64,000 bases of DNA. It comes from an uncultured delta proteobacterium. GTDB lineage: Bacteria; Desulfobacterota; Syntrophia; Syntrophales; Smithellaceae. Where the stretch lies: NCBI GenBank assembly GCA_963753975.1, contig CAVWEH010000005.1, positions 64,001 through 128,000 on the forward strand, written 5' to 3'. The notes beneath the pieces were generated by a model that had not been told where the DNA came from, did not search any database, and saw only the letters and a program-made list of their open reading frames with translations. Both the position numbers and the translations under genes were made by a program. Shown piece after piece: positions 1,516 to 32,603 of this stretch (positions within the stretch are counted from its first letter, which is position 1; the number at the start of each line of letters is the position of its first letter).

Positions 1516-1898
1516 GTGACCTTTAGTTATGCATTCTGTTTCTGAAGTTTGGGTCTTATTACAATATAGTACCACTTGGCTTCGCACGTGGTATAATTTC
1601 CAATAGCCACCGGCTATTGGATACCACATTATGCTTTGCATAAAGGATAATTCCACTTGCGCTTCGAGCTTCACTTCATTCGCTCTTAGCGAGTGTCATT
1701 AATTCGGCTAAAAAACTTCAACGCGCCTATAGTGACCTTTAGGTTATTTGCTTTTGAAGTTTTAGTCTCATTACAACTGACAGATATTACTTCACTGCGT
1801 TTGTGGAGCACCTCTGTAAGGAGCCGAAGGCTATTTTCAAAGACGCGACATCCCGTAACGGGATAATATCCGAGTTTCATTAGAATTGGAGTTTCACA
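1516..1898 (+). repeat. Array of structured hairpin units: partial B (1516-1561), full A (1645-1701), full B (1700-1773), collapsed unit plus type C right end (1850-1898)
   Basis: Sequence matches to copies at 9.5, 12.7-12.9, 20.7 and 32.4-32.6 kb, e.g. GGATAATTCCACTTGCGCTTC..GCGAGTGTCATTA and GAATTGGAGTTTCAC. Confidence 0.85.
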
Positions 1899-2010
1899 AA
1901 AAATCATAGAAAAACAATACCATTTATTTTTGACAAAAGAATCCTGCGACATATATTACAGGAAAGGAGTTATGGCGCGTGTATAAAAAAAAGAGAAAGG
2001 AGAGAGCATT

Positions 2011-2454
2011 ATGATAAAAACATTTTTTGTTTTTAGTCTTGCCGTTTTGTTTGTAGGTTGCGCTGGTTCCCGCCCGGCGCGTCTGGGCGTCACGGATGGA
2101 AAATTTATCCCCTGCCCTGATTCCCCCAATTGCGTTTCCTCCCAATCTTCCGATAAGTCACATGCCATAGAACCTCTCTATTATAAAGGAAGCGCCTCTG
2201 AGGCCAGGGCTCGACTTCTGACCGCAATTAAGGGCATGAAGCGAGCAAATATCGTTACGGAGAAGGAGAATTATATTCATGCCGAGTTTGCTTCCGCCGT
2301 CTTTCGTTTTGTCGATGATGCAGAGTTTTACATCGATGATAGTCAAAAGGTAATCCATCTCCGGTCTGCCGCCCGCTTGGGGTATTCTGACTTCGGCGTG
2401 AATCGTCAGCGGATGGAAACGATCAGACAACTTTTTAACAGCCCATCGCCATAA
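2011..2454 (+). CDS. DUF1499 family lipoprotein
   Basis: Lipobox FVGC; CPDSPNCVSSQ, FVDDAEF and RSAARLGYSDFGVNRQR motifs. Confidence 0.85.
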   Translation: MIKTFFVFSLAVLFVGCAGSRPARLGVTDGKFIPCPDSPNCVSSQSSDKSHAIEPLYYKGSASEARARLLTAIKGMKRANIVTEKENYIHAEFASAVFRFVDDAEFYIDDSQKVIHLRSAARLGYSDFGVNRQRMETIRQLFNSPSP

Positions 2455-2471
2455 CGGCCGACGGTGATTTT

Positions 2472-2807
2472 TTGAGTAGGAAACCATTGGAGAGGGAATA
2501 CAAAACAATTGAGGCAATGATTGGCCTTTCCTGCCGGGAACGCCACGGCACAAACGAGGGTGAGCTTTGTCCAGCGTGTCAGGAACTTTTAGCTTATGCA
2601 AAAGCCCGTCTCGATAAATGCCTTTATCGGGAAAATAAGCCCACATGCGCCAAATGTCCTATTCACTGCTACAAACCGGCGATGAGGGAACGCATTCGCG
2701 AAGTGATGCGCTATGCCGGGCCGTGCATGCTTAGGCGTCATCCTGTTCTCGCTATCCGCCATTTACTGGACGGCTGGAAAACAATACCCCGCCCACCTAA
2801 GGGTTGA
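2472..2807 (+). CDS. YgbA / nitrous-oxide-stimulated promoter family Cys-rich protein
   Basis: LCPACQELLAYA..RLDKC..KPTCAKCPIHCYKP..VMRYAGP. Confidence 0.85.
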   Translation: MSRKPLEREYKTIEAMIGLSCRERHGTNEGELCPACQELLAYAKARLDKCLYRENKPTCAKCPIHCYKPAMRERIREVMRYAGPCMLRRHPVLAIRHLLDGWKTIPRPPKG

Positions 2808-2902
2808 ACCGTAAAATTGATTATGGTATAAAAATACCGCTAGTTTATTTCAGTATTGCGAATTGATGCCCCGAAAATAAAAATTGAGGAGGTGTAGGCG
2901 CG

Positions 2903-3265
2903 ATGACAGATGAAACCAAGAAAAAAGAACAGCACGACGAGATACATCTGGAAAAATTGACAATCAAGGAACTGCGGGAAATTGCCGCGGAGTTTCCCCA
3001 TGAAAAGGCGATCCTCGACATGAAGAAAGAAGAAATTATCTCCTTCATCAAGGAAGCCCGGGGCATCAAAGAAGAAACGCCCGTTAAGAAAAAGAAGAAG
3101 GGCGTAAAAATTAAGATGACCAAGGTGGAGCTGAAAGCCAAGATTCGTGAATTGAAAGGATTAAGATTGAAGGCGCTCGAGGAGAAGGATAGTAAAAAAG
3201 CCATACTCCTGCGGCACCATGTCAGCCGGCTAAAGAAACTATCAAGACGAGTTACCGCGGCCTGA
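2903..3265 (+). CDS. Basic hypothetical protein with Rho-N-terminal-like helical motif
   Basis: Strong RBS (GAGGAGG); LEKLTIKELREIA..MKKEEII pattern; Lys-rich. Confidence 0.6.
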   Translation: MTDETKKKEQHDEIHLEKLTIKELREIAAEFPHEKAILDMKKEEIISFIKEARGIKEETPVKKKKKGVKIKMTKVELKAKIRELKGLRLKALEEKDSKKAILLRHHVSRLKKLSRRVTAA

Positions 3266-3363
3266 ATCCAAGCAAGATACTCCAGACGAAGTCATTCTCC
3301 AACGCATAGATGTATTAAAGATCAAATTGAGCAAAAAAAGCATCATTTAAAAGGAGGAAAAAC

Positions 3364-3867
3364 ATGGAAGGAAAAACAATACGTGAGAGCACTATTATCA
3401 TGGCCCAGCTGATGAATCCTCAGGATGCAAATCCTGCCGGAAACGTCCATGGCGGAGTCATCATGAGGCTTATTGATAATGCGGCCGGTTGCGCGGCTTG
3501 CCGCCACTCGAGGTCCAATGTCGTTACGGCCTCCATTGACCGGATGGATTTCCATAATCCCGTTTTTGTGGGAGACCTTGTGACCCTGAGGGCCAGCTTA
3601 AACTTTGTCGGAAAAACGTCAATGGAACTCGGTGTCCGGGTGGAGGCGGAAAATCTCATTACCGGTCGGAGACGCCATACGGCATCCGCCTATTTGACTT
3701 TTGTAGCCCTGGACAAAAATGGCCGCCCCCTGCCTTTATCTCCCCTGGTTGTCGAGACAGACGAAGAGAAGCGGCGAAACCAGGAGGCTAAAGACAGACG
3801 CAAGGCAAGGCTCGCGGAAAAAACAAAAGAAAAACAATGCCAGGCTGATGCGAATTGCGCTGTATAG
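3364..3867 (+). CDS. Acyl-CoA thioesterase (hotdog fold, YciA-like)
   Basis: DANPAGNVHGG, VVTASID and TFVALD motifs. Confidence 0.9.
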   Translation: MEGKTIRESTIIMAQLMNPQDANPAGNVHGGVIMRLIDNAAGCAACRHSRSNVVTASIDRMDFHNPVFVGDLVTLRASLNFVGKTSMELGVRVEAENLITGRRRHTASAYLTFVALDKNGRPLPLSPLVVETDEEKRRNQEAKDRRKARLAEKTKEKQCQADANCAV

Positions 3868-3897
3868 AGGAAAATAAAGGAGAGTTAGAAAAAATTA

Positions 3898-4137
3898 TTA
3901 TCCTCCGTACATCACATGGAAAAGGTTTAAGAGCGATCCATTGACTAGCTTTTCCTCCAATGGCAAAATGCGGCCTTCCATGATTACCGTTGCACCCGGA
4001 GAGGTTGGTATTCCCAATAGGGCCAAAAGATCGGCCGTTTTCGACCCTTCGGGAATATCCATTTCCAGACCCTTATCAGGCCTATAATCAGGTATTTTTC
4101 TTTTCAACTCCCCAAACAATTTTACCGTGATCTTCAT
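3898..4137 (-). CDS. MoaD/ThiS family ubiquitin-like sulfur carrier
   Basis: 79 aa ending in GG; directly downstream of an AOR gene. Confidence 0.85.
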   Translation of the reverse strand: MKITVKLFGELKRKIPDYRPDKGLEMDIPEGSKTADLLALLGIPTSPGATVIMEGRILPLEEKLVNGSLLNLFHVMYGG

Positions 4138-4149
4138 CCCCAAGACTCA

Positions 4150-5868
4150 TCAGAAAGAAAAAGTGGTATCCATTTCGACATCGGTAACTGTAAACACCGT
4201 GTTATGAGGCGGCAGAGCTTCTTTATAGAAAAATTCGGGAAGCCGGTCATCCTTGTTGGTGAAGCCCGCTCTGCGGTTAAATTCTCTTTCCGCCTGCAGA
4301 GTGCGAACTCCCAAATGGCCAATGGCATCGGGGCCAAGCGGCGTGCCCAATTTAGCGCCAAGCGCTTTAAGAAATGCTGCGCCTGCTTCCGGCGCTTCCA
4401 GGGCGACAGCCGCCAGGATACAAAGACCGATGCTATCCATAGCAGCCATAGCGATCTGGGCATTGCGCGAGGCCTTGACCTGTCCTGCGGGTTTAAGAGG
4501 ATCGAGCTTTCCGGCCATATATTGACCAATGACGTTTCCGGCCGTATGGTCGGCGCCCATGGGCGAGGTGGCATAGGTAACGCCGTTTCCCTGCATGGCT
4601 CTCGGGTCATAGGCGGCAATGCTCTGATTCTTAACCGCCGGAATCCGGAGATGGTTGAAACGGCGACCGACAGCCGCCGGACCGTCTCCCAGCACCTTGC
4701 CCATTTCCGTGCCACGGCCTATCTCTTCCAGCATTCCGATTGCGGCCTGACTATCCTCAAATTTCTTGTATCCCGCATCCATGGCCACGGCCAAAGCAAC
4801 GCCGGTGTTCATGGTATCGAGTCCGATGTCGTCGCAGAGAAAATCCAGGCGGGCGATGGTATCCAGATCTTTTATTCCAGTCATGCCGCCAAAGGCCCAG
4901 ATCGTCTCGTATTCAAGGGAGGAGGTAAGATATTTTCCCTGTTTATCCATAAACACATTGGAGCAATGGATAATGCATTGGGCGCAACCCATGTGGCCGG
5001 GACCGCCGCCCCGCTCCTTCATGATCTTGGTCAGGTTTTCTCCGCTGATATTTTCCCAACCGGGAAGAACTCCTTTGGTGGCATTATAACTGGGGAAGGC
5101 GCCCATAGAATTTACCGCGGCCACTAATCCGGCAGTTCCCAGGTTCGGCAAAAACTGGCCGCTGAACGGATTTTCTTTAACTTTAAGGGCAAAGATTTTG
5201 GCGGCTTCCTTAAAGGCCTCCGGATCGGCAATCACATCGGGATTCTTCCCGCGCCGATCCACGACCAGGGCTTTCAAACCCTTAGAACCCATAACCGCTC
5301 CCAGCCCTCCGCGCCCCGCCGCCCGGCAGGGGTGATCGTCAACATCCGAGGATTGAATGGAAGCGGATTTCATAAGATATTCACCGGCCGGGCCGATGCC
5401 CATGACGGAAGTCCTGTTTCCATAGGTTTTGATTAATTTATCCACCAAACTATAGGTGCGCATTCCTTTGTATTCCTTGGCCTCTATGAGGCTGGCCTGG
5501 CCGTTTTCATCAATCCGCAGGATAAACATTTCCCCCTTAGCGGCCTGACCTTCGACAACGATTGCTGTAATCCCTAGGTGTCCCAAAGCGGCGGCGATGG
5601 TGCCTCCGGCATTGCTTTCTTTGATGGTGCCAGTCAAAGGACTTTTAGCGCCTACAGAAAGCCTGCTGGTATTAACCAGATTCGTTCCGCTTAAAAGCCC
5701 GGGGGCAAAAATAAGCTTATTTTCCGGGCCTAAGGGGTTGCATTTCGGCGGCACTTCGGCGTTGATCATAGTTGAGGTCAAGCTCCTGCCTCCCAGACCG
5801 AGATAAGGCTTAGGCACATCTTCAACGCGAATACTCTTCCGCGACATATCGACTCTTATGAATTTCAT
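4150..5868 (-). CDS. aor: Aldehyde:ferredoxin oxidoreductase family protein (W/Mo-pterin)
   Basis: KSPLTG..ESNAGG, GRGGLGAVMGSK, CxxCxxxC, EYET, CDDIGLD, YDPR and GADH motifs; ATG at 5868 follows AAGGAG. Confidence 0.92.
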   Translation of the reverse strand: MKFIRVDMSRKSIRVEDVPKPYLGLGGRSLTSTMINAEVPPKCNPLGPENKLIFAPGLLSGTNLVNTSRLSVGAKSPLTGTIKESNAGGTIAAALGHLGITAIVVEGQAAKGEMFILRIDENGQASLIEAKEYKGMRTYSLVDKLIKTYGNRTSVMGIGPAGEYLMKSASIQSSDVDDHPCRAAGRGGLGAVMGSKGLKALVVDRRGKNPDVIADPEAFKEAAKIFALKVKENPFSGQFLPNLGTAGLVAAVNSMGAFPSYNATKGVLPGWENISGENLTKIMKERGGGPGHMGCAQCIIHCSNVFMDKQGKYLTSSLEYETIWAFGGMTGIKDLDTIARLDFLCDDIGLDTMNTGVALAVAMDAGYKKFEDSQAAIGMLEEIGRGTEMGKVLGDGPAAVGRRFNHLRIPAVKNQSIAAYDPRAMQGNGVTYATSPMGADHTAGNVIGQYMAGKLDPLKPAGQVKASRNAQIAMAAMDSIGLCILAAVALEAPEAGAAFLKALGAKLGTPLGPDAIGHLGVRTLQAEREFNRRAGFTNKDDRLPEFFYKEALPPHNTVFTVTDVEMDTTFSF

Positions 5869-6060
5869 GGCTTTCTCCTTTTTGCCGGGATTTGTTACTA
5901 CCCAATTCCGCGTAAGAACAATCAACGGACTGCTATAACCAAAAACATGCACATTTGATAAGCGGACAGCTTTTTGACTGTATGCTTATTATAATAAGAA
6001 TATAAAGCAAACACAAAGGGTGTCAAGGAGAAAACATCTGACCCATTTAAGGAATGAGAA

Positions 6061-6855
6061 TCATCGAAGAGCGTCTTTAATTTCACGTCCGTATTTAGAA
6101 ACAATTTCTATCAAATTGTTATTGTTTTTGTTTTCATCAATCAAGCGGACGACGGCGCTGCCGATGACAATCCCGTCGGCAAAACGCGCGATTTCGCTTG
6201 CCTGTTTCGGATTCGAAATACCGAATCCTACCGCCAGGGGCAATTTCGTGATCTTCCTGATTTTGCTTACTTCCTGTTTGATATCTTCAATTTTGGGGGC
6301 GGCCGTTCCGGTGACGCCGGTAATGGAAATATAATAAAGAAATCCTGCGGCCTCGGCGGCAATCAAGCGCAATCTTGCCATCCCGGTTGTCGGGGCGACA
6401 AGAGAAATAAAATCAATGCTATGAGCGTCGGTATATTTTCTCAATTCCTGCGCTTCTTCGTGCGGCAGGTCAACCACCAGAACACCGTCCACACCGGCCG
6501 TTTCTGCCGCTTGGGCAAACTTTTTTGTTCCATAGGCAAAAATAGGATTGTAGTAGCCAAAGAGCACGATCGGAACCGGCGAAGTTTCCCGGATAGCGGA
6601 GACCAAATCCAGCACACTTTGCAGAGTTGTTCCCGCCTTTAGCGCCCGCTGTGACGCCGCTTGAATTACCGGGCCATCGGCTGTCGGATCGGAAAAGGGA
6701 ACGCCGATTTCCAGAATGTCGACCCCCGCAGCGGCTAAGCTCAAAATCAATTCTTTCGTTACGGCAAGTGAAGGATCACCTGCCGTTAAATACACGATCA
6801 GCGCTTTTTCATTCCTTTCGCGCAACAGGTTAAATTTTTCAGTAATTCGCCCCAT
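6061..6855 (-). CDS. trpA: Tryptophan synthase alpha chain
   Basis: [21 protein letters not shown] and VGFGIS motifs. Confidence 0.97.
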
Positions 6856-6857
6856 GC

Positions 6858-8048
6858 CTATATGACTCCCATCTCAGCAATTGTTTGTGCGTCTTTATCT
6901 CCCCTGCCGGAAAGACAAATAACGATGATTTTATTTTTGGCCATTTCGGGCGCTATCTTCATGGTATAGGCAACCGCGTGCGCGCTCTCCAACGCGGGAA
7001 TAATGCCTTCGTTCTCGGATAAAAAGGAAAAAGCCTCGATTGCTTCTTTATCGGTTACAGTCACGTATTTAATTTGTTTTGTTGTATGGAAATAAGCATG
7101 TTCGGGGCCGACTCCCGGATAATCTAAGCCCGCAGCAATCGAATATGCGTCGCGCACCTGTCCATGCTCATCCTGCAAAAGATAAGTTTTGTTTCCGTGC
7201 AAAACACCCACCTTCCCCGCATTGATGCTGGCTGAATGCTTGCTTGTATTCAGGCCGTGACCTGCCGCTTCGACTCCGTACATGGCGATTTTCTTTTCTC
7301 CGCGGAAGGGATAAAAAAGCCCCATCGCGTTACTGCCGCCGCCCACGCAGGCAACTAAAATATCCGGGTTCCTGCCTTCCATTTTTTGGATTTGTTTTTT
7401 CGTCTCCCGGCCGATGACCGATTGAAAGTCGCGCACCATCTGCGGATACGGATGCGGTCCGGCTGTTGTGCCGATGATATAGAAGGTATCACGAACACTG
7501 GACACCCAGTAGCGCATGGCTTCGTTCATCGCGTCTTTGAGCGTCGCCGTGCCGCTTTTCACGGGAACGACTTCGGCACCCAATATTTTCATGCGAAAAA
7601 CATTGGGCGCCTGACGGCGGATATCTTCCTCTCCCATAAATATTTTGCATTCCATACCAAAGAGCGCCGCAACTGTTGCCGTCGCCACACCATGCTGTCC
7701 CGCGCCGGTTTCCGCAATGACTTTTTTCTTCCCCATCCGGCGGGCTAGGAGCGCCTGCCCTAGCGTATTGTTTATTTTGTGCGAGCCGGTATGATTCAAA
7801 TCTTCCCGTTTCAGATAAATTTTAGCCCCGCCCAACGCTCTTGTCATACGCTTGGCAAAATAAAGCGGAGTTTCGCGTCCCGCATAGTCTTTCCGATAAT
7901 AGGCAAATTCTTTTTGAAAGGATTTATCTTTCTTTGCCGCGGTATATGCTTTTTCTAAATCGAGTAGCGCGGGCATTAATGTCTCGGCGGTATAGCGTCC
8001 GCCGAAAATGCCGAAGTGTCCGTTTTCATCCGGTAGAGCGTCTTTCAT
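6858..8048 (-). CDS. trpB: Tryptophan synthase beta chain
   Basis: [23 protein letters not shown] and [11 protein letters not shown] motifs. Confidence 0.98.
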
Positions 8049-8707
8049 ATTTTCCTCTTCGCAAAAATTAATGGTGCATCGTCGGTCTTAGAACTTACCT
8101 CATGCACAATATCGAATAGCTTGGCCAGTTTCCCCTGATCTTTTTTGCCGGGGGATTTTTCCACGCCGCTGTTAATATCCAGCGCATGAGGCGCAATTTT
8201 TTCCATTGCTTCTCTTATATTCTCCGCGTCTAAACCACCGGAAAGGATCAGCGGCTTTTTATTTTTGATGCGCGAGGCCAGATCCCAATTCGCTTTCTTG
8301 CCGGTGCCGCCGTAAAGACCGCGCTCTCGGCTGTCCACCAATATAGCTGCTGCATCGTAGCTCAAAGCATGATTCAAATCGTCGTCATTTTTTAGCTGAA
8401 CGGCTTTAATGACCTGCGCTGCCGGAAATTGAAAGCAGTACTCTGGCGATTCATTGCCGTGCAGCTGAACAAAATCAAGCCCGCAATATTTGACGACTCT
8501 TTTCACTTCTGCGGCATTCTCGTCGACAAAGACGCCGACCTTCGCTACCTCATCCGGCAGCATACTAACGATCTTGCGGGCATCCTCAGGTTTTATATAG
8601 CGCGGCGAGCGCAGATAAAAGATAAAACCCAGCGCAGCAGCACCTAATATAGCCGAGCAAAGAGCGTCCTCTTCATTGGTTATTCCACAAATTTTAATTT
8701 GTGTCAT
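8045..8707 (-). CDS. trpF: Phosphoribosylanthranilate isomerase
   Basis: KICGIT, QLHGNE, GGTG and LSGGL motifs. Confidence 0.95.
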
Positions 8708-9483
8708 TTCGGCTTTTTTCCTTTAAACGCATGCAGCTTTTCCCCTATATCCGCTGCTGTAATCAGCGCTTCACCGATCAAGAAAGCATGGATATTTGCC
8801 TGCAGCAAAAATTCTATGTCTGCTCTCGACATAATGCCGCTTTCGGCCACGACAATTTTGTGAGCGGGAATTTGCGCCCCAAGCTTGCGGCTGGTTTCTA
8901 TATCGGTAACGAACGTATCCAGGTTTCTGTTATTGATCCCGATTATCTGGGCACCGGCGGATAGGGCCGAATCCAGCTCCGCTTTCGTGTGCACTTCTAC
9001 AAGCGCACTTAATCCAATTTCCTTAGCCAATAACATAAAGTCCCGCAACTTGGCCCCTAAAACATGCGCAATCAATAAAACGGCATCAGCGCCGATGGTG
9101 CGCGTTTCATAAATCTGTATGGGATCAATTATAAAATCTTTCCGCAGGAGGGGCAGCCCGACTTCTTTTCTGATTTGGGTCAGATAATTTTTATGCCCGG
9201 CGAAATATTTTTCGTCGGTCAAAACAGATATAGCGGCAGCACCGTTTTTTTCATAAACGCGGGCAATTCTAACCGGATCGAAATCGTCAATGAACGTGCC
9301 CCGGGAAGGCGAGGCGCATTTCACTTCGGCTATGATCGCGCACTTCTTTGCGCTAAGCGCGCGGCGGAAATCCCGGCACGGCGGGAGCCCTGCAATTGCT
9401 TTTTCCAAAAGGGCTGCGTTCGTTTGCTTTTTTAGCTCCCGCACTTCGGTTTTCTTGGTTTTAATAATTTTGTCGAGAATCAT
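8704..9483 (-). CDS. trpC: Indole-3-glycerol phosphate synthase
   Basis: IAEVKCASPSRG, LRKDF, GINNRNL and ESGI motifs. Confidence 0.96.
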   Translation of the reverse strand: MILDKIIKTKKTEVRELKKQTNAALLEKAIAGLPPCRDFRRALSAKKCAIIAEVKCASPSRGTFIDDFDPVRIARVYEKNGAAAISVLTDEKYFAGHKNYLTQIRKEVGLPLLRKDFIIDPIQIYETRTIGADAVLLIAHVLGAKLRDFMLLAKEIGLSALVEVHTKAELDSALSAGAQIIGINNRNLDTFVTDIETSRKLGAQIPAHKIVVAESGIMSRADIEFLLQANIHAFLIGEALITAADIGEKLHAFKGKKPK

Positions 9484-9489
9484 ATCTTC

Positions 9490-9571
9490 CTCATCCCGCG
9501 TCGCTTCGCTCCTGGGATAATTCGACCAGCAAGCTTCAGCGCACTTTGTTTCTGAAGCTTGGGTCTCATTA
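9490..9571 (+). repeat. Single type B hairpin unit between trpD and trpC, bounded by CTCAT direct repeats
   Basis: ATCCC..GGGAT short hairpin, then TAAT-TC-GACC-AG-CAAGCTTCAG-loop-CTGAAGCTTG-GGTC-TC-ATTA; CTCAT at 9490-9494 and 9565-9569. Confidence 0.9.
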
Positions 9572-10579
9572 ACTGTTGCTCATTTCAATTAGCGCTTGTA
9601 ATTTCTTTACCGCCGCGCCGCTGTCGATGCATTCGGCCGCAATCGCGATTCCTTCTTTTAAGTTTTCTGCCTTTTCTCCGGCAACGATCGCCAAAGCAGC
9701 GTTCAGCAAAACAATGTTGCGGCAAGCGCCGTTTTTCCCGGAAAGAACATCTCTGGCAATCCGGGCATTCAGGGCCGGATCGCCGCCACGAATGGCTTCC
9801 AGCGGATCAATTCTCCCAAAATAGTCCGTCGGATTAATGTTGTAGGTTCGAATAATTCCGTCTTTTAGTTCCGCCACGCGTGTTTCGCTGCTTATCGTGA
9901 CTTCGTCCAAGCCATCCAAGCCATGAACAATGAAAGCTCTTTTCGTACCCATATTTTTCAACACATCGGCGAACATCTCGGCGAGTTTCGTATCATAAAC
10001 GCCCAGAAGCTGCGCGGTTGCTCCGGCCGGATTAGTGAGCGGCCCCAGCATATTAAATATGGTGCGAATACCGATTTCGCGCCGCGGGCCAATGGCGTAT
10101 TTCATCGCGCCGTGGAGTTTCGGCGCAAAAAGAAAGCCGATGCCGATTTGTTGTAGGCATTCTTCGACAATTTCCTGAGGCGCGCTGATATTAACGCCTA
10201 AGGCTTCCAGAACATCGGCACTGCCGCAGCCGCTGGATACGGCACGATTGCCGTGCTTGGCCACAACAATTCCCGCCGCTGCAGCAACGAAAGCTGTCGT
10301 CGTCGATATATTGAAGGTATTTAGGGAATCGCCCCCCGTGCCGCAGGTATCCAAGATCGTGGTCGCGCAGGCATTCACCCGCGTTGCTTTCTGGCGCATG
10401 ATGCGCGCCGCGCCGGTCACTTCCTCCACAGTTTCGCCTTTCATCCGCAATGCTGTAATCAAAGCGGCAATTTGTGCGGGAGTAGCGCTGCCTTCCATAA
10501 TTTCTTCCATCGCCGCCATCATTTCTGCTTCGCGTAGATCGATTTTTTTAACGGCTTTTTCAATCGCTTCTTTGATCAT
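9569..10579 (-). CDS. trpD: Anthranilate phosphoribosyltransferase
   Basis: [14 protein letters not shown] and KHGNRAVSS motifs; true start MIKEAI overlaps the trpG stop. Confidence 0.96.
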
Positions 10580-11163: not shown

Positions 11164-11166
11164 GCT

Positions 11167-12690: not shown

Positions 12691-12928
12691 ATCCCCTGCC
12701 TGCGGCGGGGATAATTCGGCTAACAAGTTTCAGTGCACTCTGTTTCTGAAACTTGGGCCTCATTAACCACGGACGTGTCGTCCTCCGCTTTGCGGGGTCG
12801 TTCAACTATCCAATTCCGCTGTGCTTCGCTTTCGGAATTGGAGTTTCACATCCCTCATCGCTTTGCTCCTAGGATAATTCCACTTGCGCTTCAAACTTCG
12901 CTGGGCTCGTTTTCAGCGAGTGTCATTA
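12691..12928 (+). repeat. Tandem array of three hairpin units (B 12691-12765, C 12781-12849, A 12850-12928) in the trpE 5' leader
   Basis: Each unit is a short C-rich/G-rich hairpin followed by a long imperfect hairpin closed by TC..TC. Confidence 0.9.
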
Positions 12929-20639: not shown

Positions 20640-20674
20640 AAAAACCGTCAAGGTTTTTGTTCTTGACGGTTTTT
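20640..20674. terminator. Intrinsic terminator downstream of trpB2 (symmetric)
   Basis: AAAAACCGTCAAG..CTTGACGGTTTTT. Confidence 0.8.
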
Positions 20675-20770
20675 AATGAGACTCAAGTTTCAAAAGCGTA
20701 GTGAGCCCCAGATTTTAGAAGTGAAGCGTACTGAAATCTGTTGGACAAACTATCCCGCAAAGCGGGGTCC
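20674..20770 (-). repeat. Degenerate type B hairpin unit with a long loop
   Basis: TAATGAGACTCAAGTTTCAAAAGCG is near-identical to 32531; ends in ACTATCCCGCAAAGCGGGG. Confidence 0.8.
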
Positions 20771-20780
20771 ATACCCATGA

Positions 20781-22142: not shown

Positions 22143-22180
22143 AATTATTCTCCTTCCAATAATTGTTTGACAATGCGCCT

Positions 22181-22219: not shown

Positions 22220-22280
22220 GCCATCACTTTTTGGAATCATGGGAAGGAGCTTCCCTGCCCACACTCCTTTTTGTCCGAGG

Positions 22281-22343: not shown

Positions 22344-22444
22344 TTTTTCAACTCAAACTTACCCTTTAAAGTGCAATTTGCCTAACACAACGAATAAATG
22401 ATTGTCAAGTCGAAAATTTAATATAAAAAGACAAGAAGTATATT

Positions 22445-23020: not shown

Positions 23021-23178
23021 TTCATTGTTCCGAGTTACCGCTAACTACATGCAGATAAAGATTGCAGACTGGCTCGGTCAGCCCTGAACATCCGTCAACG
23101 GCAGACTTAACTTATACATTCGATCAATGACGGGTATTTTATCTGTTCGAAAGTTTATCCGCTTTATTCATTATCTCA

Positions 23179-24372: not shown

Positions 24373-24529
24373 TAATTTTACCCTTTATCACAATTTTGAG
24401 TTATTATAGGAAATAATATTCAACTGTCAAACTATAATAGCTTCTTCCAAAAGCGGTTAGATTTATCAATAATTCATTTTTTAGTTGCATTATCATAAAG
24501 GATTGTTTAAAAAAAGCTTTGTCTTCATA

Positions 24530-24577
24530 CGCTTCGTCCAGCATGCCCAAGCGTTGCTTTCGGAATCGGAGTTTTAC
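24530..24577 (+). repeat. Right half of a type C hairpin unit
   Basis: GCTTCGTCCAGCATGCC..GCTTTCGGAATCGGAGTTTTAC resembles the reverse complement of 32441-32490. Confidence 0.7.
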
Positions 24578-24658
24578 TATAAGCGATCCGCTGATGATTC
24601 GTTCAATATTTTAAATTGCTTCGGAAATCTTTAACTATGCAGTTGAGATTACATTTTT

Positions 24659-25324
24659 ATGTCCAAATCTGACGTTGCTCTAGAAGAAAAAAATTTGTTT
24701 TTCCCCAATGGATCTATAAAAGAAAGAAAATTCCTGCAGGAAGGCAAATTGGAAGGGGAATATACTTCCTACTTCAACAATGGTCAAATAATGGCGCAAT
24801 TGCACTTTATCCGTGGCAAGAAAAACGGAGCCGCGATTACATATTACCATAACGGTCAAGTGAGAGAAAAAGTAAATTTCGCCAATGACAAAATGGACGG
24901 ACCCTACATTTCTTATTACGAAAACGGCAACATCAGGGAAGAGGAAAATTACGGGGAAGGTAAGCTGGATGGCCAATATGAAATTTATTACAAAACCGGC
25001 CAGTTAAAAGAAGTAGAAAATTTTAAAAATGGCAAATTTAACGGAGAATATATCTGCTATTATAAAAGCGGACAAATTAAGGAAAAAGGATATTTTATAA
25101 ACGACAAACGCGAAGGTGAATACATAGCTTATTTCAAAAACGGGCAGATAAGGGAACAGGCTACTTACAAAAATGGAAATCTTGCAGGTAAATTTTTGTC
25201 TTTCACTGAAAATCTTTCCAGCGAACCGGGCAAAGGTAGCGACGCTTCCGACGATATTCGAGATGAAAAAGATATTGCCGCTTTGCTTCAAGATTTAGCC
25301 GGTTTCGATAAAAAAGAAAAGTGA
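24659..25324 (+). CDS. MORN-variant repeat protein (YwqK-like)
   Basis: About seven 24-aa repeats G(K)xxGxYxxYYxNGQIxExxxF/Y. Confidence 0.85.
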   Translation: MSKSDVALEEKNLFFPNGSIKERKFLQEGKLEGEYTSYFNNGQIMAQLHFIRGKKNGAAITYYHNGQVREKVNFANDKMDGPYISYYENGNIREEENYGEGKLDGQYEIYYKTGQLKEVENFKNGKFNGEYICYYKSGQIKEKGYFINDKREGEYIAYFKNGQIREQATYKNGNLAGKFLSFTENLSSEPGKGSDASDDIRDEKDIAALLQDLAGFDKKEK

Positions 25325-25354
25325 CCATGCTTGTGTTATAGAGAAAAAAATATC

Positions 25355-26194
25355 ATGATAAAGAAAATTCTTATTCCTACCGATGGCTCCACCAATAGCC
25401 TCACGACTTTGGAATATGGAATTTATGTCGCCCGTAAACTCAACGCCTCTTTAATCGGTCTTTACGTTTTGGATGTGAATTTGATCCAGGGCCCGATGCT
25501 TACCGATATTTTCGGTTCTGTCGGAATGCCGCCTTACGACGGTTTTTTCGATGCAGTGGAAATATCTCTTAACGAAAAAGCGGACTTTATTTTAAAAGCT
25601 TTCCGCGAGCGCTGTCAGGAATCAGGAATTAATGCTGAAGTAAAAAAACCAATCGGTAAAATCAATCAAATAATTATCGAAGAATCTCAAGGTGTCGATT
25701 TAATTCTGATGACGAAAGAAGGTGAACACTTCCACTTAAAGGAAGGCGGACTTCTTGGTTCAATAGCCGAAGCCGTTGTCCGCAATTCAGGGAACCCGGT
25801 GCTGATCACTCCCGAAACTTTCTTGGAAATAGAAAGTATGGGACTTGCTTACGACGGCAGCGTTCCGGCCGCAAAAGCTTTAAAACTTTCTTTGGAATTA
25901 TCCGAACAAGCTTCCTGGCCGCTGACAGTTGTGACTATCAACGAGGATGCTGATAAGGCCGATAAGCTTTGTACCGAAGCAGAGGAGCTTATCGGAAAAT
26001 ACAGTGCTGATTGCGAAATTATTATTATGCAGGGCAAAGAAGGAGAAGAAATAATTAAGTTTATAAAAGAAGGATCAGTGGAATTAATGGTCATGGGAGC
26101 TTATGGTCATAATCGTCTGCGCGAATTATTCTTGGGCAGTACGACTACTCATATCATCCGCAAAAGCCCTATTCCTGTTTTACTCACGCACTAA
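25355..26194 (+). CDS. Universal stress protein (tandem USP domains)
   Basis: ILIPTDGS, LGSIAE, MGAYGH and LGSTT motifs. Confidence 0.9.
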   Translation: MIKKILIPTDGSTNSLTTLEYGIYVARKLNASLIGLYVLDVNLIQGPMLTDIFGSVGMPPYDGFFDAVEISLNEKADFILKAFRERCQESGINAEVKKPIGKINQIIIEESQGVDLILMTKEGEHFHLKEGGLLGSIAEAVVRNSGNPVLITPETFLEIESMGLAYDGSVPAAKALKLSLELSEQASWPLTVVTINEDADKADKLCTEAEELIGKYSADCEIIIMQGKEGEEIIKFIKEGSVELMVMGAYGHNRLRELFLGSTTTHIIRKSPIPVLLTH

Positions 26195-26208
26195 TTGTAT
26201 TCTTTACT

Positions 26209-26973
26209 CTAAAGCTCTTTATCGAGAACCATTTGTTGCAATGTGTCCAGCAAATCGTATCTGGTCAAATCGTATTGAATCGGTGTAATCGTGATAAAGC
26301 CGGAAGCCAAGGCTGCAACATCTGTATCTTCATTTCGTGCCTTGGGTGAATATTCCCCGGAAATCCAGTAATAAGTATTTTCTCTTGGATCCACCCGTTT
26401 TTCAAAAGTTTCGACAATATTGTTTTTGTTTTGCCGGACAACTACGACCCCTTTGATTTTCTCGCGGGGAAGGCAGGGGATATTAACATTAATCGCACTT
26501 CCTTTAAGTTCCGGACTGCCCAAGATTAACCGGGTCATCTTGCGGGCAAACTTGGCGGCATAGGTAAAATCAGCTTCCTTATGAGTATCGAGGGAAATAG
26601 CCATTGAGGGAACGCCCATGATTACCGCTTCAGTTGCCGCCGATACTGTTCCCGAATAAAGGACATTGATCCCTGCATTAGAGCCCCGATTGATGCCCGA
26701 CACAACCATGTCCACCGGCTTTTGGGCTAACTCTTTGATGCCTATTTTGACACAATCCGCCGGCGTCCCATAAACAGCATAACCTAAAAATTTTCCGTTT
26801 TTTGTGGCGCGGCGCACCATCAGGGGACGAAAAATAGTAATAGCATGCCCTACGGCACTCTGTTCGATTTCCGGGGCAACAATCAAACAATCCGCCTCCC
26901 GGGAAAGCTCGTCATAAAGAGAGCTTAAGCCTTTGGCATATATTCCGTCATCATTAGTAAGTAAGAATCGCAT
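26209..26973 (-). CDS. surE: 5'/3'-nucleotidase SurE
   Basis: LLTNDDG, GTPADCV and SGINRGSNAG..YSGTV motifs. Confidence 0.95.
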   Translation of the reverse strand: MRFLLTNDDGIYAKGLSSLYDELSREADCLIVAPEIEQSAVGHAITIFRPLMVRRATKNGKFLGYAVYGTPADCVKIGIKELAQKPVDMVVSGINRGSNAGINVLYSGTVSAATEAVIMGVPSMAISLDTHKEADFTYAAKFARKMTRLILGSPELKGSAINVNIPCLPREKIKGVVVVRQNKNNIVETFEKRVDPRENTYYWISGEYSPKARNEDTDVAALASGFITITPIQYDLTRYDLLDTLQQMVLDKEL

Positions 26974-27028
26974 TCCCCCCAACTTTATATCTTTCGGTCT
27001 TCGGTCTTCAGCCTATCCACCTAAATCG

Positions 27029-28294
27029 CTATTTTACCTGCTCCAATTTTCCGTTATTAACTCTTAATATAAAAGGAGTCTTTTGAGCAACTCTATCCGG
27101 ACCAAAAGATATATTTCCCGTTGCGCCCTTATAATTTTCCACTTTTATTAAGGCATTGATGAATTCTTGACGCGTTTGAATGTCTTCATTTTCCAAGACA
27201 TTAAAGATTATTCCGGCCGTATCATACGCTAACGCCTCGATACTTTCCGGATCACGGCTATAAGCCGTGTAATAAGCGTCGACAAAGTCGTTTGTTTCCG
27301 GATAAAAGCTATTAACAAAAAAACTGTCGACAAAAACAGCTCCTTCCAGATAATCCGAATTATTTTTTAACAAATACGGCGAATTCCACAAGCTGGTGCC
27401 CAGAAGCTTAATGCCTTTCACATCATAAAAAGCAAGCTGAGAAGTTATCATCCTGACTCGCCGATACGAATCGGGAATAAATAAAGCTTCAAAATCAAGG
27501 GCTAATGGAGTTTTTACTTCCGGTTTTTTAGAAGACATTTTCTTTGCAGTGCTGATAAGATTGCCGGTGACTTTATCAATTTGTTCCGTAAAATCCGTCT
27601 GACTTTTGTTGTAAGGTATTGCCCTTTCCACTTTACCCCCCTCACGCACTGCTTCCGCACGGAAAATTTTCACCATTTCCTCTCCATAGTCGTCCTTCGG
27701 ATATAAAATAGAAAATATTGCGCAATTCAAATCATCCAGGGCATATTTAACTATAGCCCTGATTTGTTGGGTAGGCGTCAAGAAGTGCTGGAAGACATAT
27801 TCGCTTGAGGAGGTAATTCCTTCTTTGGAGGTTATCAGGACTATTGGAACTTCCCACTTATTAGCTTCACGGGCAGCTTCGATAGCATCCTCTGTTCCAG
27901 TGACGGCAACAATCGCCATAACATTTTCAGTATTGGCCAAATGTTCTACGGCCGCTCTTGCTCCCTCCGGCAAACCGCGGGAATCTTCCGCAACAACCCT
28001 CCACAAAGTGCTCTTTCCCCCATCAAACATACCCGCAGATAATAAAATTGCATCCAGTGCTTTGCTTCCTAAATCAGCATACGGGCCGGATAGAGGCAGC
28101 ACACACCCTAAGGTATAGCGATTATATCCGACCACCGGAGGTTTCACTGGGGGAAGTATGGCTTCCGGCGGTTTTACTTCCGTAGGCGGGCTCGGAGCAG
28201 GTTCCTGAACAATAATTCTTGGCTGGGCGCAGCAGGCGATAAAAAAAACTAGCAGCAAAATAAATATTTTGACCAAAATCCGATAATTTTTCAT
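27029..28294 (-). CDS. LppC/LpoA-like lipoprotein (periplasmic binding protein type 1 fold)
   Basis: Lipoprotein signal, Pro-rich linker, LPLSG, ALAYD and GATG motifs. Confidence 0.8.
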   Translation of the reverse strand: MKNYRILVKIFILLLVFFIACCAQPRIIVQEPAPSPPTEVKPPEAILPPVKPPVVGYNRYTLGCVLPLSGPYADLGSKALDAILLSAGMFDGGKSTLWRVVAEDSRGLPEGARAAVEHLANTENVMAIVAVTGTEDAIEAAREANKWEVPIVLITSKEGITSSSEYVFQHFLTPTQQIRAIVKYALDDLNCAIFSILYPKDDYGEEMVKIFRAEAVREGGKVERAIPYNKSQTDFTEQIDKVTGNLISTAKKMSSKKPEVKTPLALDFEALFIPDSYRRVRMITSQLAFYDVKGIKLLGTSLWNSPYLLKNNSDYLEGAVFVDSFFVNSFYPETNDFVDAYYTAYSRDPESIEALAYDTAGIIFNVLENEDIQTRQEFINALIKVENYKGATGNISFGPDRVAQKTPFILRVNNGKLEQVK

Positions 28295-28890
28295 TTTGCC
28301 TCCTTCATAATTGTCAGCATATAATCACGGGCGCGTTTGGCCAACTCAGGATTGTCTAATAAAATCGATATTTCATTATTATACTTCATCGCCGCTTGTG
28401 TAAGGTTATGGCTACCCAGAAGAACCAGCCGCTGATCGATCACGATTAGTTTTGTATGCGTCGTTTTGTATGGTGAATCGAAATAGACCTTCACCGCTTT
28501 CTCTTCCAGAAGTTTCCCCGTCTCTCTGTTTTGAATATTCAGTTCATCCGAGAGGCTGCCTGTCGTTTCTAAAATGACGGTAACCTTTACGCCTCTTTTC
28601 GTCGCTTTGGCCAAATGCCCCAGGACACGATCGGGATAACTGTTTTTGTGCACACCGACTTTAAAAGAAAATATCGACATGAAGATTTCGCTTTGCGCTT
28701 CGTCAATGGCCTTTAACAACGCCGGGAAATAAGCTTCATTGGTCAGAAGAATCGCCTGGCATCCGGGCTGATCAGAAGAAATTGTATTAAGCTTTTCTCC
28801 GGCAAATGCTGACGATAATGACGCAATTACAAAAATTAAGCCGCAGAGCACAACAACAATATTTTTCTTGCCTGAATCAAAGCTGCTCAT
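28291..28890 (-). CDS. Single-domain phospholipase D family (Nuc-like) secreted protein
   Basis: HTKLIVID..GSHNLT..NNE (HKD motif); signal peptide. Confidence 0.88.
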   Translation of the reverse strand: MSSFDSGKKNIVVVLCGLIFVIASLSSAFAGEKLNTISSDQPGCQAILLTNEAYFPALLKAIDEAQSEIFMSIFSFKVGVHKNSYPDRVLGHLAKATKRGVKVTVILETTGSLSDELNIQNRETGKLLEEKAVKVYFDSPYKTTHTKLIVIDQRLVLLGSHNLTQAAMKYNNEISILLDNPELAKRARDYMLTIMKEAK

Positions 28891-28941
28891 AGTTCCTCTA
28901 ACTTATATTATTGTATAATATTTCTTTGTATTGGTCGATAT

Positions 28942-28979
28942 AAAAAAGCCCGAAACTGGAATCCAGTTTCGGGCTTTTT
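28942..28979 (-). terminator. dnaK terminator
   Basis: AAAAAGCCCGAAACTGG..CCAGTTTCGGGCTTTTT. Confidence 0.88.
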
Positions 28980-28993
28980 ACTTCAATTCTTCG

Positions 28994-30916
28994 CTATTTT
29001 ACTTCCTCAAAGTCGGCATCTACTACATCATCATCCTTTTTCCCCGACGCCTGCTGCCCACCGCTTTGCTGCTCTGTCCCGGCACCGGCAGTAGGACCAC
29101 CTTGACCACCGGAGGTTTTTGCATACATGGCTTCCGCCAATTTGTGCGAGACATTCATCAAGTCGTCCTGAGCTTTTTTGATGGCTTCAACATTTTCGCC
29201 TTCCAAAGCTTTTTTCGCCTTGCTTATTGCTTCTTCGATTTTTGCTTTTTCGCCCGCATCTACTTTATCGCCAAATTCCTTAATATTTTTTTCCACGCTG
29301 TAAATCATGGAATCGGCCTGATTTCTCGCTTCAATTAATTCCTTGCGACGCTTGTCTTCTTCGGCGTGCTGTTCCGCGTCACGCACTAATTTCTGAATTT
29401 CTGCTTCACTCAAACCGCTGGAAGCGGTGATTTTGATGCTCTGTTCTTTACCGGTACCCAGATCTTTTGCGTTAACATGCACGATACCGTTGGCATCAAT
29501 ATCAAAAGTAACTTCAATTTGAGGTATGCCGCGCGGCGCCGGTGGTATACCCACCAATTCAAAACGCCCCAAAGTTCTGTTATCAGGCGCCATCTGACGT
29601 TCACCCTGAAGCACGTGAATGCTCACCGCCGGCTGATTATCGGCAGCTGTCGAAAAAATCTGGCTTTTCTTGCTGGGAATAGTAGTGTTTTTCTCGATAA
29701 GCCTGGTCATAACCCCGCCCAGAGTCTCTATACCCAGAGAAAGCGGAGTAACATCAAGCAGCAATACATCTTTCACATCACCCGCCAAAACTCCGCCCTG
29801 AATTGCTGCGCCGACAGCCACAACTTCGTCCGGATTCACGCCTTTGTGCGGTTCCTTGCCGAAAATTTCTTTTACCCTCTGTTGAACCCGCGGCATTCTG
29901 GTCATTCCACCAACCAAAATAACTTCGTCAATATCTTTGGTTGATAGATTGGCGTCTTTCAGTGCAGTGCGGCAAGGATCAACTACCTTTTCAATCAATT
30001 CTCCCACTAAAGATTCCAGCTTAGCTCTGGAGAGCTTAATATTCATGTGCTTGGGGCCGGATGCATCGGCGGTAACGAACGGCAGATTGATATCGGTTTC
30101 CATCGTAGTGGAAAGTTCCATCTTCGCCTTTTCCGCCGCTTCTTTGAGCCGTTGCAGCGCCATTTTATCGTTCCTCAAATCAATGCCTTGATCTTTTTTA
30201 AATTCTGCGACCAGAAAATCCATTACGCGCTGGTCGAAATCTTCACCGCCCAAATGCGTATCGCCGTTGGTAGACTTAACCTCAAAGACGCCATCGCCCA
30301 ATTCCAAAATAGATATATCAAAAGTGCCGCCGCCTAAATCAAAGACGGCAATCTTTTCCTCCTTCTTCTTGTCCAAACCATAAGCAAGAGCGGCTGCTGT
30401 AGGTTCATTGATGATACGTAATACATTCAGTCCGGCAATCTTGCCGGCGTCTTTTGTCGCCTGACGTTGTGAATCGTTAAAATATGCCGGAACGGTAATA
30501 ACAGCATCCGTTACTTTTTCTCCCAGATAATCCTCCGCAGTTTGTTTCATCTTCGTCAAAATCATCGCGGATATTTCGGCCGGAGAATAGTTCTTTTTCC
30601 TTATTGTAACTTGGGCATCACCGTTCGAAGCTTCCGTTATCTTGTAAGGAATAATCTTGATATCATACTGAACTTCTTTGGAATTGTATTTTCTACCGAT
30701 AAGCCTTTTGACGGCGTAGACAGTATTTTCCGAATTCGTTATGGCCTGCCTTTTCGCCACCTGCCCTACTAACCTTTCGCCGGTTTCCGTTATGGCAACA
30801 ACGGACGGCGTGGTGCGATTGCCTTCTTGATTGGCGATAACGACAGGGTCTCCCCCTTCCATTATGGCTACGCAAGAATTTGTTGTCCCTAAATCAATTC
30901 CGATAATTTTTGCCAT
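28994..30916 (-). CDS. dnaK: Chaperone DnaK
   Basis: [17 protein letters not shown] and DADFEEV motifs. Confidence 0.99.
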
Positions 30917-30927
30917 TTTTTTCCTCC

Positions 30928-31509
30928 TTATTCTCCATTGTCTGCTATTTTTTCACATGTCTCATTTTCTTTATTTGTCTTTTTACATACACAAACTTTT
31001 GACGGCCTTAAAAGTCTGCCATTGAGCAAATAACCTTTTGCTATTTCATTAACTATTTTATTTTCTTCATGCTCGTCGCTATGAATCTGCATCATTGCTT
31101 CATGAAAGTTGGGGTCGAAATCAGCTCCTGAACTTTCAATTCTCTCCACGCCGTGCTTTTTGAGACAGCACAAAAGCTGTTCCTGAATTAATTTGATACC
31201 ATCCTTAAATGCTTCAACATCGGAGCCGCCGGTATGTTCCATTGCCCTGTCTAAGCTGTCCAAAAAAGGCAAAATATCTCTAATGATCTCTTCGTTGCCA
31301 TACTTGATTGTATCAGCCTTTTCTTTAGCCGCCCTTTTTTTGTAATTATCCAATTCCGCAGTTGCACGCAGGTACTTATCATAATTGGCCGCGGCTTCTT
31401 TTTCCTTATCTTCTAATTTCGCTTTTAGATCATTTATTTCCGAGTGCTCTCCTCCGGCAATAACTTCGTCCGGAGGATGTTTAGCAATGTGTTCTTTTTT
31501 TGTTTTCAC
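30928..31509 (-). CDS. grpE: Nucleotide exchange factor GrpE
   Basis: [18 protein letters not shown] and [11 protein letters not shown] motifs. Confidence 0.96.
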
Positions 31510-31534
31510 CTTAACCTCAAAAATAATTTTCTCA

Positions 31535-32119
31535 TTATTTTAAGTCAGGCTTTTGAAATAATTTCATATCTACCAGTTCACAGATAGCATGACCGGCTGT
31601 AATATGTGTTTCCTGAATGCGCGCCGTACTGGAAGAAGCTACATTAACGGAAAAATCAACAATTTTCGCAATGCTTCCCCCATCTTTGCCGGTAAAAGCA
31701 ACTGTTACCAATCCCATCTTCTTGGCCATTTCCAGGCCTTTCATAACATTGGCGGAATTACCGCTGGTACTGATTCCCCAGGCGACATCCCCCGGTTGTC
31801 CTATCGCCCTGATCTGCTTACTGAATATTTCGGAGAAGTCATAATCATTTCCGATACTCGTAATAACGGATGTATCGGTCGTAAGAGCAATTGCCGGAAG
31901 AGGCGGCCTTTCTATTAAAAAGCGGTTAATAAATTCCGCAGCAATATGTTGTGCATCCGCCGCTGAACCGCCATTGCCAAAAAGTAATATCTTGTTGCCT
32001 GATTTCAGTGCAGCAGTTAACACATCAATTATATTAATCAGTTTACTTAGGTTCTCATTAATAAAAGCTTCTTTGACGCGGCTGCTTTCTTTAAATATTT
32101 TTATTACATGATCCTGCAT
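31535..32119 (-). CDS. gmhA: D-sedoheptulose 7-phosphate isomerase
   Basis: GNGGSAADAQH, ISTSGNS and RIQETH motifs. Confidence 0.95.
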   Translation of the reverse strand: MQDHVIKIFKESSRVKEAFINENLSKLINIIDVLTAALKSGNKILLFGNGGSAADAQHIAAEFINRFLIERPPLPAIALTTDTSVITSIGNDYDFSEIFSKQIRAIGQPGDVAWGISTSGNSANVMKGLEMAKKMGLVTVAFTGKDGGSIAKIVDFSVNVASSSTARIQETHITAGHAICELVDMKLFQKPDLK

Positions 32120-32439
32120 AATTACCTAGCTGAAATCTTTCATTATTACCTAAAGTAAAGCCAAGCTAATATATTTACAGGTATTACTCCTGTCAAGGGT
32201 AGCCAGCTGTAATTTTCTTAGCTTTTTAGGGACATATTTTAATCACGAGCATACTAATATTGACATCAGACGTCTCCGGAATTTGTCCTTAACGCAGTAA
32301 TCCCCAGCCCACCTACGTCACACCGGTAATAGATAACCTTCAGGTTACTAAGGCCGGTGTCCAGTTATTTTGCCGTTGACCAGTGCAAAAAAAGAATTGA
32401 AATAAAGAAATTTGCGAGTATATTTAAGCACATGGTTTT

Positions 32440-32603
32440 CGTGAAACTCCAATTCCGAAAGCGAAGCCCGACGTATGCTAGGCAAAGCGCAACGGAATTG
32501 GTAAGCTGAACGATCCCGCACAGCGGAGGGTAATGAGACTCAAACTTCAAAAGCGAAGCTGATAGAAGTTTGTTAGCCGAATTATCCAGTGTAAGCAGGG
32601 ATA
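32440..32603 (-). repeat. Tandem array of two hairpin units (C 32440-32530, B 32531-32603)
   Basis: Reverse-complement matches to 12781-12849 and 12691-12765. Confidence 0.9.

Follow-up and report, generated by a model that had tools for sequence, protein, structure and literature searches.

The window analysed here is a 64-kb stretch of DNA (positions 64001–128000 of contig C5) from G000, a 2.43-Mb genome in six contigs that is 95% complete; other G numbers denote compared genomes and L numbers denote fetched loci. Our analysis revealed that the dispersed hairpin units found at six loci of this window are real and mobile repeats. A preliminary description had counted about 12 units and proposed that they are non-autonomous and moved by an enzyme encoded elsewhere. 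All six loci are present, with 8 complete units detected by a covariance model and about 5 further interrupted or decayed ones; the units are non-autonomous and no enzyme gene adjoins them in the window, but the enzyme itself was not found. We suggest, at a little under an even chance, that the unit is a non-autonomous single-stranded DNA (ssDNA) transposon of the rolling-circle or peel-and-paste type (IS91/Helitron-like), served in trans by an HUH nicking enzyme. Published work is cited by PMC number.

Fold and anatomy of the unit

We read the unit on the strand opposite to that of the preliminary description, where the long hairpin lies 5'. All types show the order 4 bp, a tandem GA mismatch (GA/GA), 4 bp, a 2-nt bulge, 8 to 10 bp and a loop. 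Tandem Py-GA-Pu mismatches are stable in DNA. We compared 335 distinct units, taken from G000, the fetched loci and part of G012: 271 have a loop of exactly 16 nt, giving a 54-nt long hairpin, and 256 of these 271 carry the tip triloop GNA (188) or ANA (68). The sequence GCGNAGC forms a DNA mini-hairpin of unusual stability (PMC13037366). The TC/TC frame described earlier is present on its own strand and reads as GA/GA with the GNA or ANA tip on the opposite one. Types A, B and C can be distinguished, but they are subtypes of this single 54-nt fold, and the short hairpin, formerly placed first in the unit, is preceded by the long hairpin on the tandem-GA strand.

A descriptor of structure alone matched 127 sites in the 2.43-Mb genome and 3 in one shuffled copy. 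The stem co-variation quoted between copies proved correct: among 44 units, both sides change in 19 of 20 pairs, and 95.8% of cells pair, compared with 76.8% in shuffles and 23–40% with slid partners, a test that is partly circular because the units were selected by a descriptor requiring pairing at 14 positions. Four pairs outside this demand still covary, with 10, 27, 18 and 1 double changes. Wobble pairs in the long stem (31 G.T vs 12 A.C) favor the tandem-GA strand, and those in the short stem (5 G.T vs 48 A.C on that strand, 33 of the 48 at one position) favor the other.

A complete element runs from the long hairpin through a small hairpin beginning TCC to, often, a tail, whose final hairpin is followed by GTG and a purine (a purine follows CCGTG in 118 of 123 cases). 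Outermost tailed elements are 83–185 nt long and lack terminal inverted repeats (at most 5 of 10 end bases complementary in 74/74); tail-less elements stop at the foot of the small hairpin. Elements start with TT, TA or TC and end with GTGR or GGGA. In tailed and tail-less elements alike, the last base can pair with the base after the long hairpin, and when 37 elements were folded as circles, one helix spanned the junction with a mean closing-pair probability of 0.86, a value obtained without a shuffled control. Likeness to kink-turns, hammerheads and TIGR was dropped as the positions of the bulge and boxes do not fit.

Relative to co-directional genes, the orientation of the element is unbiased (55:45, p = 0.37). 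Where the skew was usable, 67 of 112 loci have the element on the G-rich strand (67:45, p = 0.047), a weak hint of exposure on the lagging-strand template. The DNA-type triloops, the unbiased gene orientation and this weak strand bias together lead us to infer that ssDNA is the working form of the element.

Spread, insertion and nesting

G000 holds 155 BLAST-defined loci amounting to 27 kb, about 1% of the genome; the 144 best-supported loci contain 255 unit starts, and at least 138 of 150 candidates scored were hits of the covariance model. Of 151 genomes sampled from the class, 55 match, among them 41 of the 49 in the family, and no unit was found in the congener G023. Records of carriers are titled Smithella, Smithellaceae, Syntrophaceae and delta proteobacterium. 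An exact-pattern search over GTDB returned Bacteroidota and Ignavibacteria records among the matches listed, and 15 genomes of these groups picked from those matches have 1–37 units each. The 140-nt element of a Rikenellaceae record is identical to that of a deltaproteobacterial record in 130 of 140 columns (93%), pointing to horizontal spread. For phages and plasmids, pattern scans of IMG/VR gave nothing or chance hits and BLAST found no copy. No RNA sequencing run was listed as a carrier, whereas a distant DNA run was, at a share of 0.08. Locus L126, on a contig labelled archaeon (label taken as given), has a large array split by an element judged IS3-like by eye.

Filled and empty alleles of orthologous sites, a comparison proposed in the preliminary description, were both found, with turnover. 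The comparison with G012 covers 1.18 Mb, about 42% of that genome, and gave 55 loci with both flanks: 32 have no unit start in G012 (25 of them are also clearly shorter), 16 have other units and 7 agree, so that 16 of 23 sites occupied in both genomes swap unit type. In the reverse direction, 21 of 45 G012 loci are shorter in G000, in a list that includes some duplicate or doubtful loci. Turnover of the element affects most of the sites compared between close relatives, and copies lie in operon junctions, in leaders and at stop codons; the element is therefore an active source of regulatory change, both in Bacteroidota and in uncultured syntrophs.

About ten empty/filled pairs have readable junctions. 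Clean empty alleles reveal a 5' end fixed at the foot of the long hairpin and several alternative 3' ends, which are discrete hairpins each followed by a short purine-ended tail. No true target duplication is present at the readable junctions; a 2–4 nt overlap is partly encoded by the element, although for the pair hC1_22139 a 3–4 nt duplication is also a possible reading. The terminal purine is borne by the element (C5:408706, where the T count reveals that the terminal A belongs to it, and C6:1624), as is the leading T or TT. The target of the commonest (TT/TC) subtype is TTA^TT (caret, insertion point): TTA precedes TT in 93 of 109 distinct flanks of metagenome copies of this subtype, compared with 3.5% of intergenic TT in G000. 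Elements of the TAAT type show no TTA rule, and their frequent targets are stop codons and other units. Upstream of xerC, empty alleles are exact, with host bases whole on either side. A dispersed repeat of about 80 nt (G000:C1:149012, C2:526271, C4:17415, C5:549551) is a recurrent target at one position.

These alleles bear on two further explanations. Units might be regulatory or nucleoid-binding sites maintained by the host, which would need no dedicated enzyme if homologous recombination and gene conversion accounted for most of their spread. The swapping of unit types at occupied sites would suit this, as would the old sites kept across genera at the xerC flanks; however, precise new insertions into unrelated DNA obey a target rule and the precise empty alleles already weaken it, 32 of 55 sites have no unit in a close relative, near-identity (93%) crosses phyla and none was seen in the congener G023, which make it very unlikely. 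On the second, units would be RNA elements, or retroelements made by copying a structured RNA, which we consider scarcely probable at all. Retro-insertion would resemble what is seen in its fixed end, variable opposite ends and flank that is A-rich on the strand of the preliminary description, and covariation is strong, with short-stem G.T wobbles on that same strand. Yet transcription orientation is unbiased, the variable ends are discrete hairpin feet rather than random truncations, Rfam gives no match, and the only reverse transcriptase found in G000 is retron-like and has no unit near it.

Many starts lie within other copies. G000 has 121 such internal starts, 102 of them at six recurring junction types: 30 after the G of the right-arm GA, 28 after the outer-stem GAAT, 21 after the small hairpin, 14 after the left stem, 5 after a tail and 4 after the G of the tip triloop; the other 19 follow something else. 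The remainder of an interrupted unit often resumes beyond the guest; therefore, arrays arise when new copies insert into older ones, mainly where bases are unpaired or only weakly paired. Elsewhere the host remainder is missing, which implies deletion or conversion between copies. Exact head-to-tail tandems are also present (94 bp at C4:307531, 79 bp at C2:139307), and other small hairpin families, including one of 16 nt, nest likewise. The chaining in one orientation described as tandem arrays is thus present, but it mostly reflects nested insertion and remodelling, not ordered cassettes.

Candidate mechanisms and the search for the enzyme

We favor the HUH-driven transposon because the fixed start, hairpin-defined stops, insertion between A and T without duplication, ter-like target and tandems match IS91 and Helitrons. 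IS91 has unlike ends, no target duplication, a target resembling its ter cut site and bypassed terminators (PMC13181058); Helitrons have a hairpin just before the 3' end, insert between A and T, and form head-to-tail junctions (PMC4778049). In the cycle we propose, the long hairpin would fold on the tandem-GA strand while the DNA is single-stranded, a state weakly favored on the lagging-strand template, and would be the binding and start site (ori) of the enzyme, whereas the small hairpin or tail would act as a leaky terminator (ter). The strand would be released, probably as a small circle with its two ends stacked in one helix, and joined into a T-rich target between a purine and T (R^T). 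Mosaics could then be built by leaky termination, nesting and recombination between copies.

With IS91 and its miniatures, the unit shares two unlike ends with subterminal palindromes, the lack of target duplication, leaky termination, a short target like the ter cut site (in the unit, TTTA vs GTGA) and, presumably, a strand-specific single-stranded intermediate (PMC13181058). It differs in its target, which is CTTG/GTTC in IS91 (PMC13181058), and its copies are only 83–185 nt long, have no Y2 gene inside or beside them, are heavily self-nested and bear no likeness to 46 IS91 loci. Non-autonomous Helitrons likewise start with T, have a hairpin before a purine-ended tail (CTRR, GTGR in the unit), insert between A and T in AT-rich DNA as the TT/TC subtype does, acquire new 3' ends and form head-to-tail junctions; in contrast, the unit is bacterial, far smaller and has its conserved structure at the 5' end (PMC4778049). 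The Helitron termini, 5'-TC and CTRR-3', are not those of the unit.

Several observations weigh against this transposon. No circle was observed, and no HUH gene tracks the element across genomes. For each candidate family, we asked whether carriers encode it and whether units adjoin its gene. No Y1 gene occurs in G000, G012, G031 or G022, and among 52 Y1 loci (of about 87 listed matches) 3 have a unit, never on both sides. The IS91 Y2 gene, which G000 lacks, occurs in 13 of 46 genomes; its sole holder among 14 other genomes of the genus is the unit-free G023, and none of 46 IS91 loci has a unit or a likeness to its modules. The one HUH Rep found in G000 (PF23343) belongs to a tRNA-integrated island and occurs in 5 of 46 genomes; all 5 are carriers, most carriers lack it, and it has no unit-like origin. 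No autonomous copy with the order hairpin, gene, tail was seen. Wobble pairs are split between the strands rather than all favoring one. Finally, TAAT-type insertions have A as the second target base in 7 of 12 cases and those of the TT/TC type in 1 of 55, a small set of related, non-independent cases; a target base that tracks the 5' arm of the element fits short-homology strand exchange at least as well.

Such an exchange could be made by a tyrosine recombinase (XerC/XerD or an integrase) that uses the folded element as a single-stranded attachment site and yields a closed-dumbbell circle. In integron cassettes and CTX phage, one strand is exchanged and the junction is resolved by replication; here, one exchange at R^T with a homology core of 1–4 nt would be resolved in the same way. 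We regard this route as unlikely, but the closure of circularised elements with both ends in one helix and the likeness of target bases to the 5' arm (up to 8 nt at one site) keep it alive. Moreover, the 4 bp and tandem GA make a 6-nt core beside an arm with a 2-nt bulge, and XerC-like genes, present in all 45 genomes searched and in G000, would explain the lack of a dedicated gene. In 18 of 30 genomes of the family, xerC has a unit within about 400 nt, invariably on the strand of the gene itself; however, xerC was chosen post hoc from 15 doubly flanked genes with no other orthologous gene run as a control, the link comes down to two old insertion sites in the DUF151-xerC-hslV operon, and none of 30 recombinase loci in Bacteroidota and Ignavibacteria carriers has a unit. 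Genomes with xerC yet without units exist (G023), the intact tyrosine recombinases of G000 are just XerC, XerD and the island integrase, and the arms of the element show no inverted-repeat likeness to each other.

Integron attC sites fold in a strand-specific way, with extrahelical bases, an internal loop and a terminal loop that varies, and carry RYYYAAC/GTTRRRY boxes. The unit shares these fold features, and its R^TT core resembles G^TT, but it has a fixed length of 54 nt and no gene cassettes, and G000 has no integron integrase. The lack of attC boxes and of the GTAG tag noted earlier was borne out: the boxes occur in none of 122 units on either strand, and at the foot of the hairpin, GTRG lies within 14 nt in 13 of the 122 and CGTC in 2, so that neither the GTAG/GTGG nor the CGTC tag is characteristic of the family.

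In IS200/IS605, a tetranucleotide guide pairs with the target; covariation of this kind was sought by eye and not seen, and the left-flank TTA is unchanged across subtypes that differ at positions 7–10. With IS200/IS605 ends and PATEs, the unit shares mobile ends without a gene and a weak preference for the lagging-strand template; like them, it has no inverted repeats, makes no duplication and inserts 3' of a T-rich tetranucleotide (PMC7290912), but its left and right hairpins differ, its right end varies and its target preference also extends 3' of the cut. No parent insertion sequence with a TnpA and the ends of the unit was found at the Y1 and IS91 loci examined. Repetitive extragenic palindromes (REPs) and BIMEs mobilised by RAYT proteins are likewise patchily distributed intergenic imperfect hairpins in hundreds of copies, with a bulge that appears to be required and mosaic clusters (PMC8266576, PMC6006769, PMC3733652); in contrast, the units chain head-to-tail in one orientation rather than as inverted pairs, flank no RAYT gene, and G000 has no Y1. 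How REP-like repeats spread without a dedicated transposase has been stated as an open question for CGTC REPs (PMC3733652).

A small GIY-YIG single-strand nuclease, Ssn-like or embedded in a tRNA, might instead cut the foot of the hairpin, with host repair or recombination pasting in the fragment. Ssn cuts ssDNA a few nucleotides from its own hairpin repeat, and such a cut would yield a fixed end (PMC11893778); the SRM/NTS repeats are hairpins acted on as ssDNA, as the unit presumably is. Small GIY-YIG genes are common in carriers, G000 encodes three, one adjoins a unit in both G000 and G012, and hairpins like those nested in units also lie beside tRNA-embedded GIY-YIG genes. We nevertheless think this quite improbable: in other genomes, units lie near 6 of 100 GIY-YIG loci, which is about chance, Ssn-type genes are not flanked by units, and the degenerate SRM motif is found at none of 144 G000 loci. 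Every subfamily class, in a noisy classing, also occurs in unit-poor genomes, and several empty alleles are precise even though a hydrolytic nuclease has no joining activity of its own.

The neighbors that the preliminary description had put forward for testing (HUH, Y1 or RAYT, tyrosine recombinases, GIY-YIG and, in G000 only, IS110) do not track the units in any case; the broken IS110 of G000 has no unit near it. An HUH motif scan of G000 open reading frames (ORFs) returned the island Rep alone, with no family search made for RepHel, and Rep_1 gave no match in 5 genomes, where the control matched nothing either. The few tail-only remnants were not seen to enclose a gene together with a unit. 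Clustering of 1,212 flanking ORFs (887 + 325) yielded no recurrent mobile-element family, as judged by eye and motif, and low-copy genomes had no telling neighbor. Either the enzyme gene is unlinked or has been lost from the assemblies, or the enzyme is a host protein or belongs to a family outside those queried.

Searches for known families, also suggested earlier, gave no Rfam, attC-box, REP-tag or SRM match. In Rfam, no unit reached the gathering score or E < 1, and the one chance hit lay away from any unit; the window itself matches no Rfam family. The unit lacks the defining features of attC sites, GTAG or CGTC REPs, SRM repeats, PATEs and IS91, belongs to no Rfam family and, having neither terminal inverted repeats nor a true target duplication, is not a miniature inverted-repeat transposable element. 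No description of the family was found in the open literature searched, which takes in few subscription journals (the REP tables of PMC3733652 and PMC6006769 may hold related motifs); the main text of the REP survey PMC3733652 does not mention Syntroph- or delta- taxa. It might be a new, self-contained class, namely sub-100-nt ssDNA transposons with dumbbell circles, target pairing by the right arm and cross-phylum spread, moved by a host protein (for example XerC/D or a topoisomerase) or by an enzyme of an undescribed family, although we give this only about one chance in four. Base-level definition of the ends, target and strand means that candidate enzymes can be tested with one 85-nt oligonucleotide, and a new ssDNA-joining activity on so small a substrate would also serve as a tool.

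Other features were observed at the loci searched. The island at a tRNA end (G000:C2:536671-544100, L466) encodes a tyrosine integrase, a 95-aa protein, four cargo ORFs and the PF23343 Rep, and its kin in G015 and G005 share an att-like repeat. G015 has four IS91-like copies (L449, L462, L464, L465), each with a tyrosine recombinase and ending in a long attC-like hairpin. In Smithellaceae and Bacteroidota, small GIY-YIG genes lie between repeated tRNA fragments, sometimes in tandem arrays, with part of the tRNA replaced by a tiny hairpin (L003 1400-2130; L274; L484; L485; L501; L494), and a shortened GIY-YIG gene (L002 1480-1850) is flanked by a different short palindromic repeat family. The 15 genes with units on both sides or twice nearby include several for DNA metabolism on contig C2 of G000: topA, dprA and ligA, named by eye from sequence, and xerC, identified by Pfam and context. 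The retron-like reverse transcriptase follows a helix-turn-helix gene and has a structured upstream region (G000:C2:427937-431470, L387). The IS110 copy (G000:C1:1-1300, L388) is frameshifted, GC-rich, at a contig end and unlike the rest of the genome, possibly through assembly artefact or contamination.

Loci in the window

All six loci named in the preliminary description stand, and loci 1 and 6 reach further than described, to tails at 1466 and 32615.

Table 1. Hairpin-unit features of the 64-kb window (window coordinates)
Feature	Position	Strand	Description
Locus 1	1466..1899	-	Nested composite between a DD-peptidase-like gene (473-1381) and a 147-aa ORF (2011-2454)
Locus 1, first parts		-	C-type left-arm stub 1899-1883; unit from 1882, split by a second hairpin module at about 1864-1805
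Locus 1, middle		-	B unit 1773-1700, its loop carrying a 16-nt mini-hairpin; A unit from 1701
Locus 1, end		-	Small hairpins; decayed B unit from 1561; tail ending at 1466
Locus 2	9494..9571	-	Single B unit and small hairpin, between trpD and trpC
Locus 3, outer element	12767..12928	-	A unit, small hairpin, C unit (12851-12798), small hairpin, tail
Locus 3, inner element	12692..12766	-	B unit and small hairpin
Locus 4	20674..20780	+	B-unit left arm; second unit (20699-20752) within the tip triloop; small hairpin; tail
Locus 5	24520..24579	-	Decayed C-type left arm and loop insert; right arm gone; inner end approximate
Locus 6	32438..32615	+	C unit with loop insert (32439-32513), small hairpin, B unit (32531-32584), small hairpin, tail
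16-nt mini-hairpin	1732..1747	-	Inserts into unit loops and into its own loop

Near-identical 200-nt copies of locus 1 lie elsewhere in G000 (98% at C1:152297), and the site in G012 has the tail only. The trp genes lie inside the window. At locus 2, the TAA of trpD is the first triplet of the unit; the trpD-trpC junction is empty in 4 of 6 relatives, holds another unit type in G160 and holds an unrelated repeat in G060. That repeat (L204) is an inverted pair without a match to the SRM motif, which we take to be CGTC-REP-like. The outer element of locus 3 sits directly before an older element, behind a terminator-like hairpin upstream of trpE; 6 of 12 alleles of the trpE leader are filled and 6 empty, and the filled ones differ in their units and share the last small hairpin.

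A single nucleotide separates the end of locus 4 from the stop codon of a trpB-like gene; the locus is missing in five relatives, four of which have other DNA there and so offer no clean junction. At locus 5, about 110 nt are missing from G158 and G159; for locus 6, no orthologous allele was retrieved. The mini-hairpin (16–20 nt) has other copies at 1516-1530 and, free-standing, at 32334-32347, with 68 pattern matches in G000. Apart from these units, the window contains a direct repeat of 143 nt with 73% identity (38360-38502 and 39298-39440, spaced 938 nt) and, at 63659-63903, low-complexity repeats of 24–27 nt within the Lys-rich tail of the last ORF.

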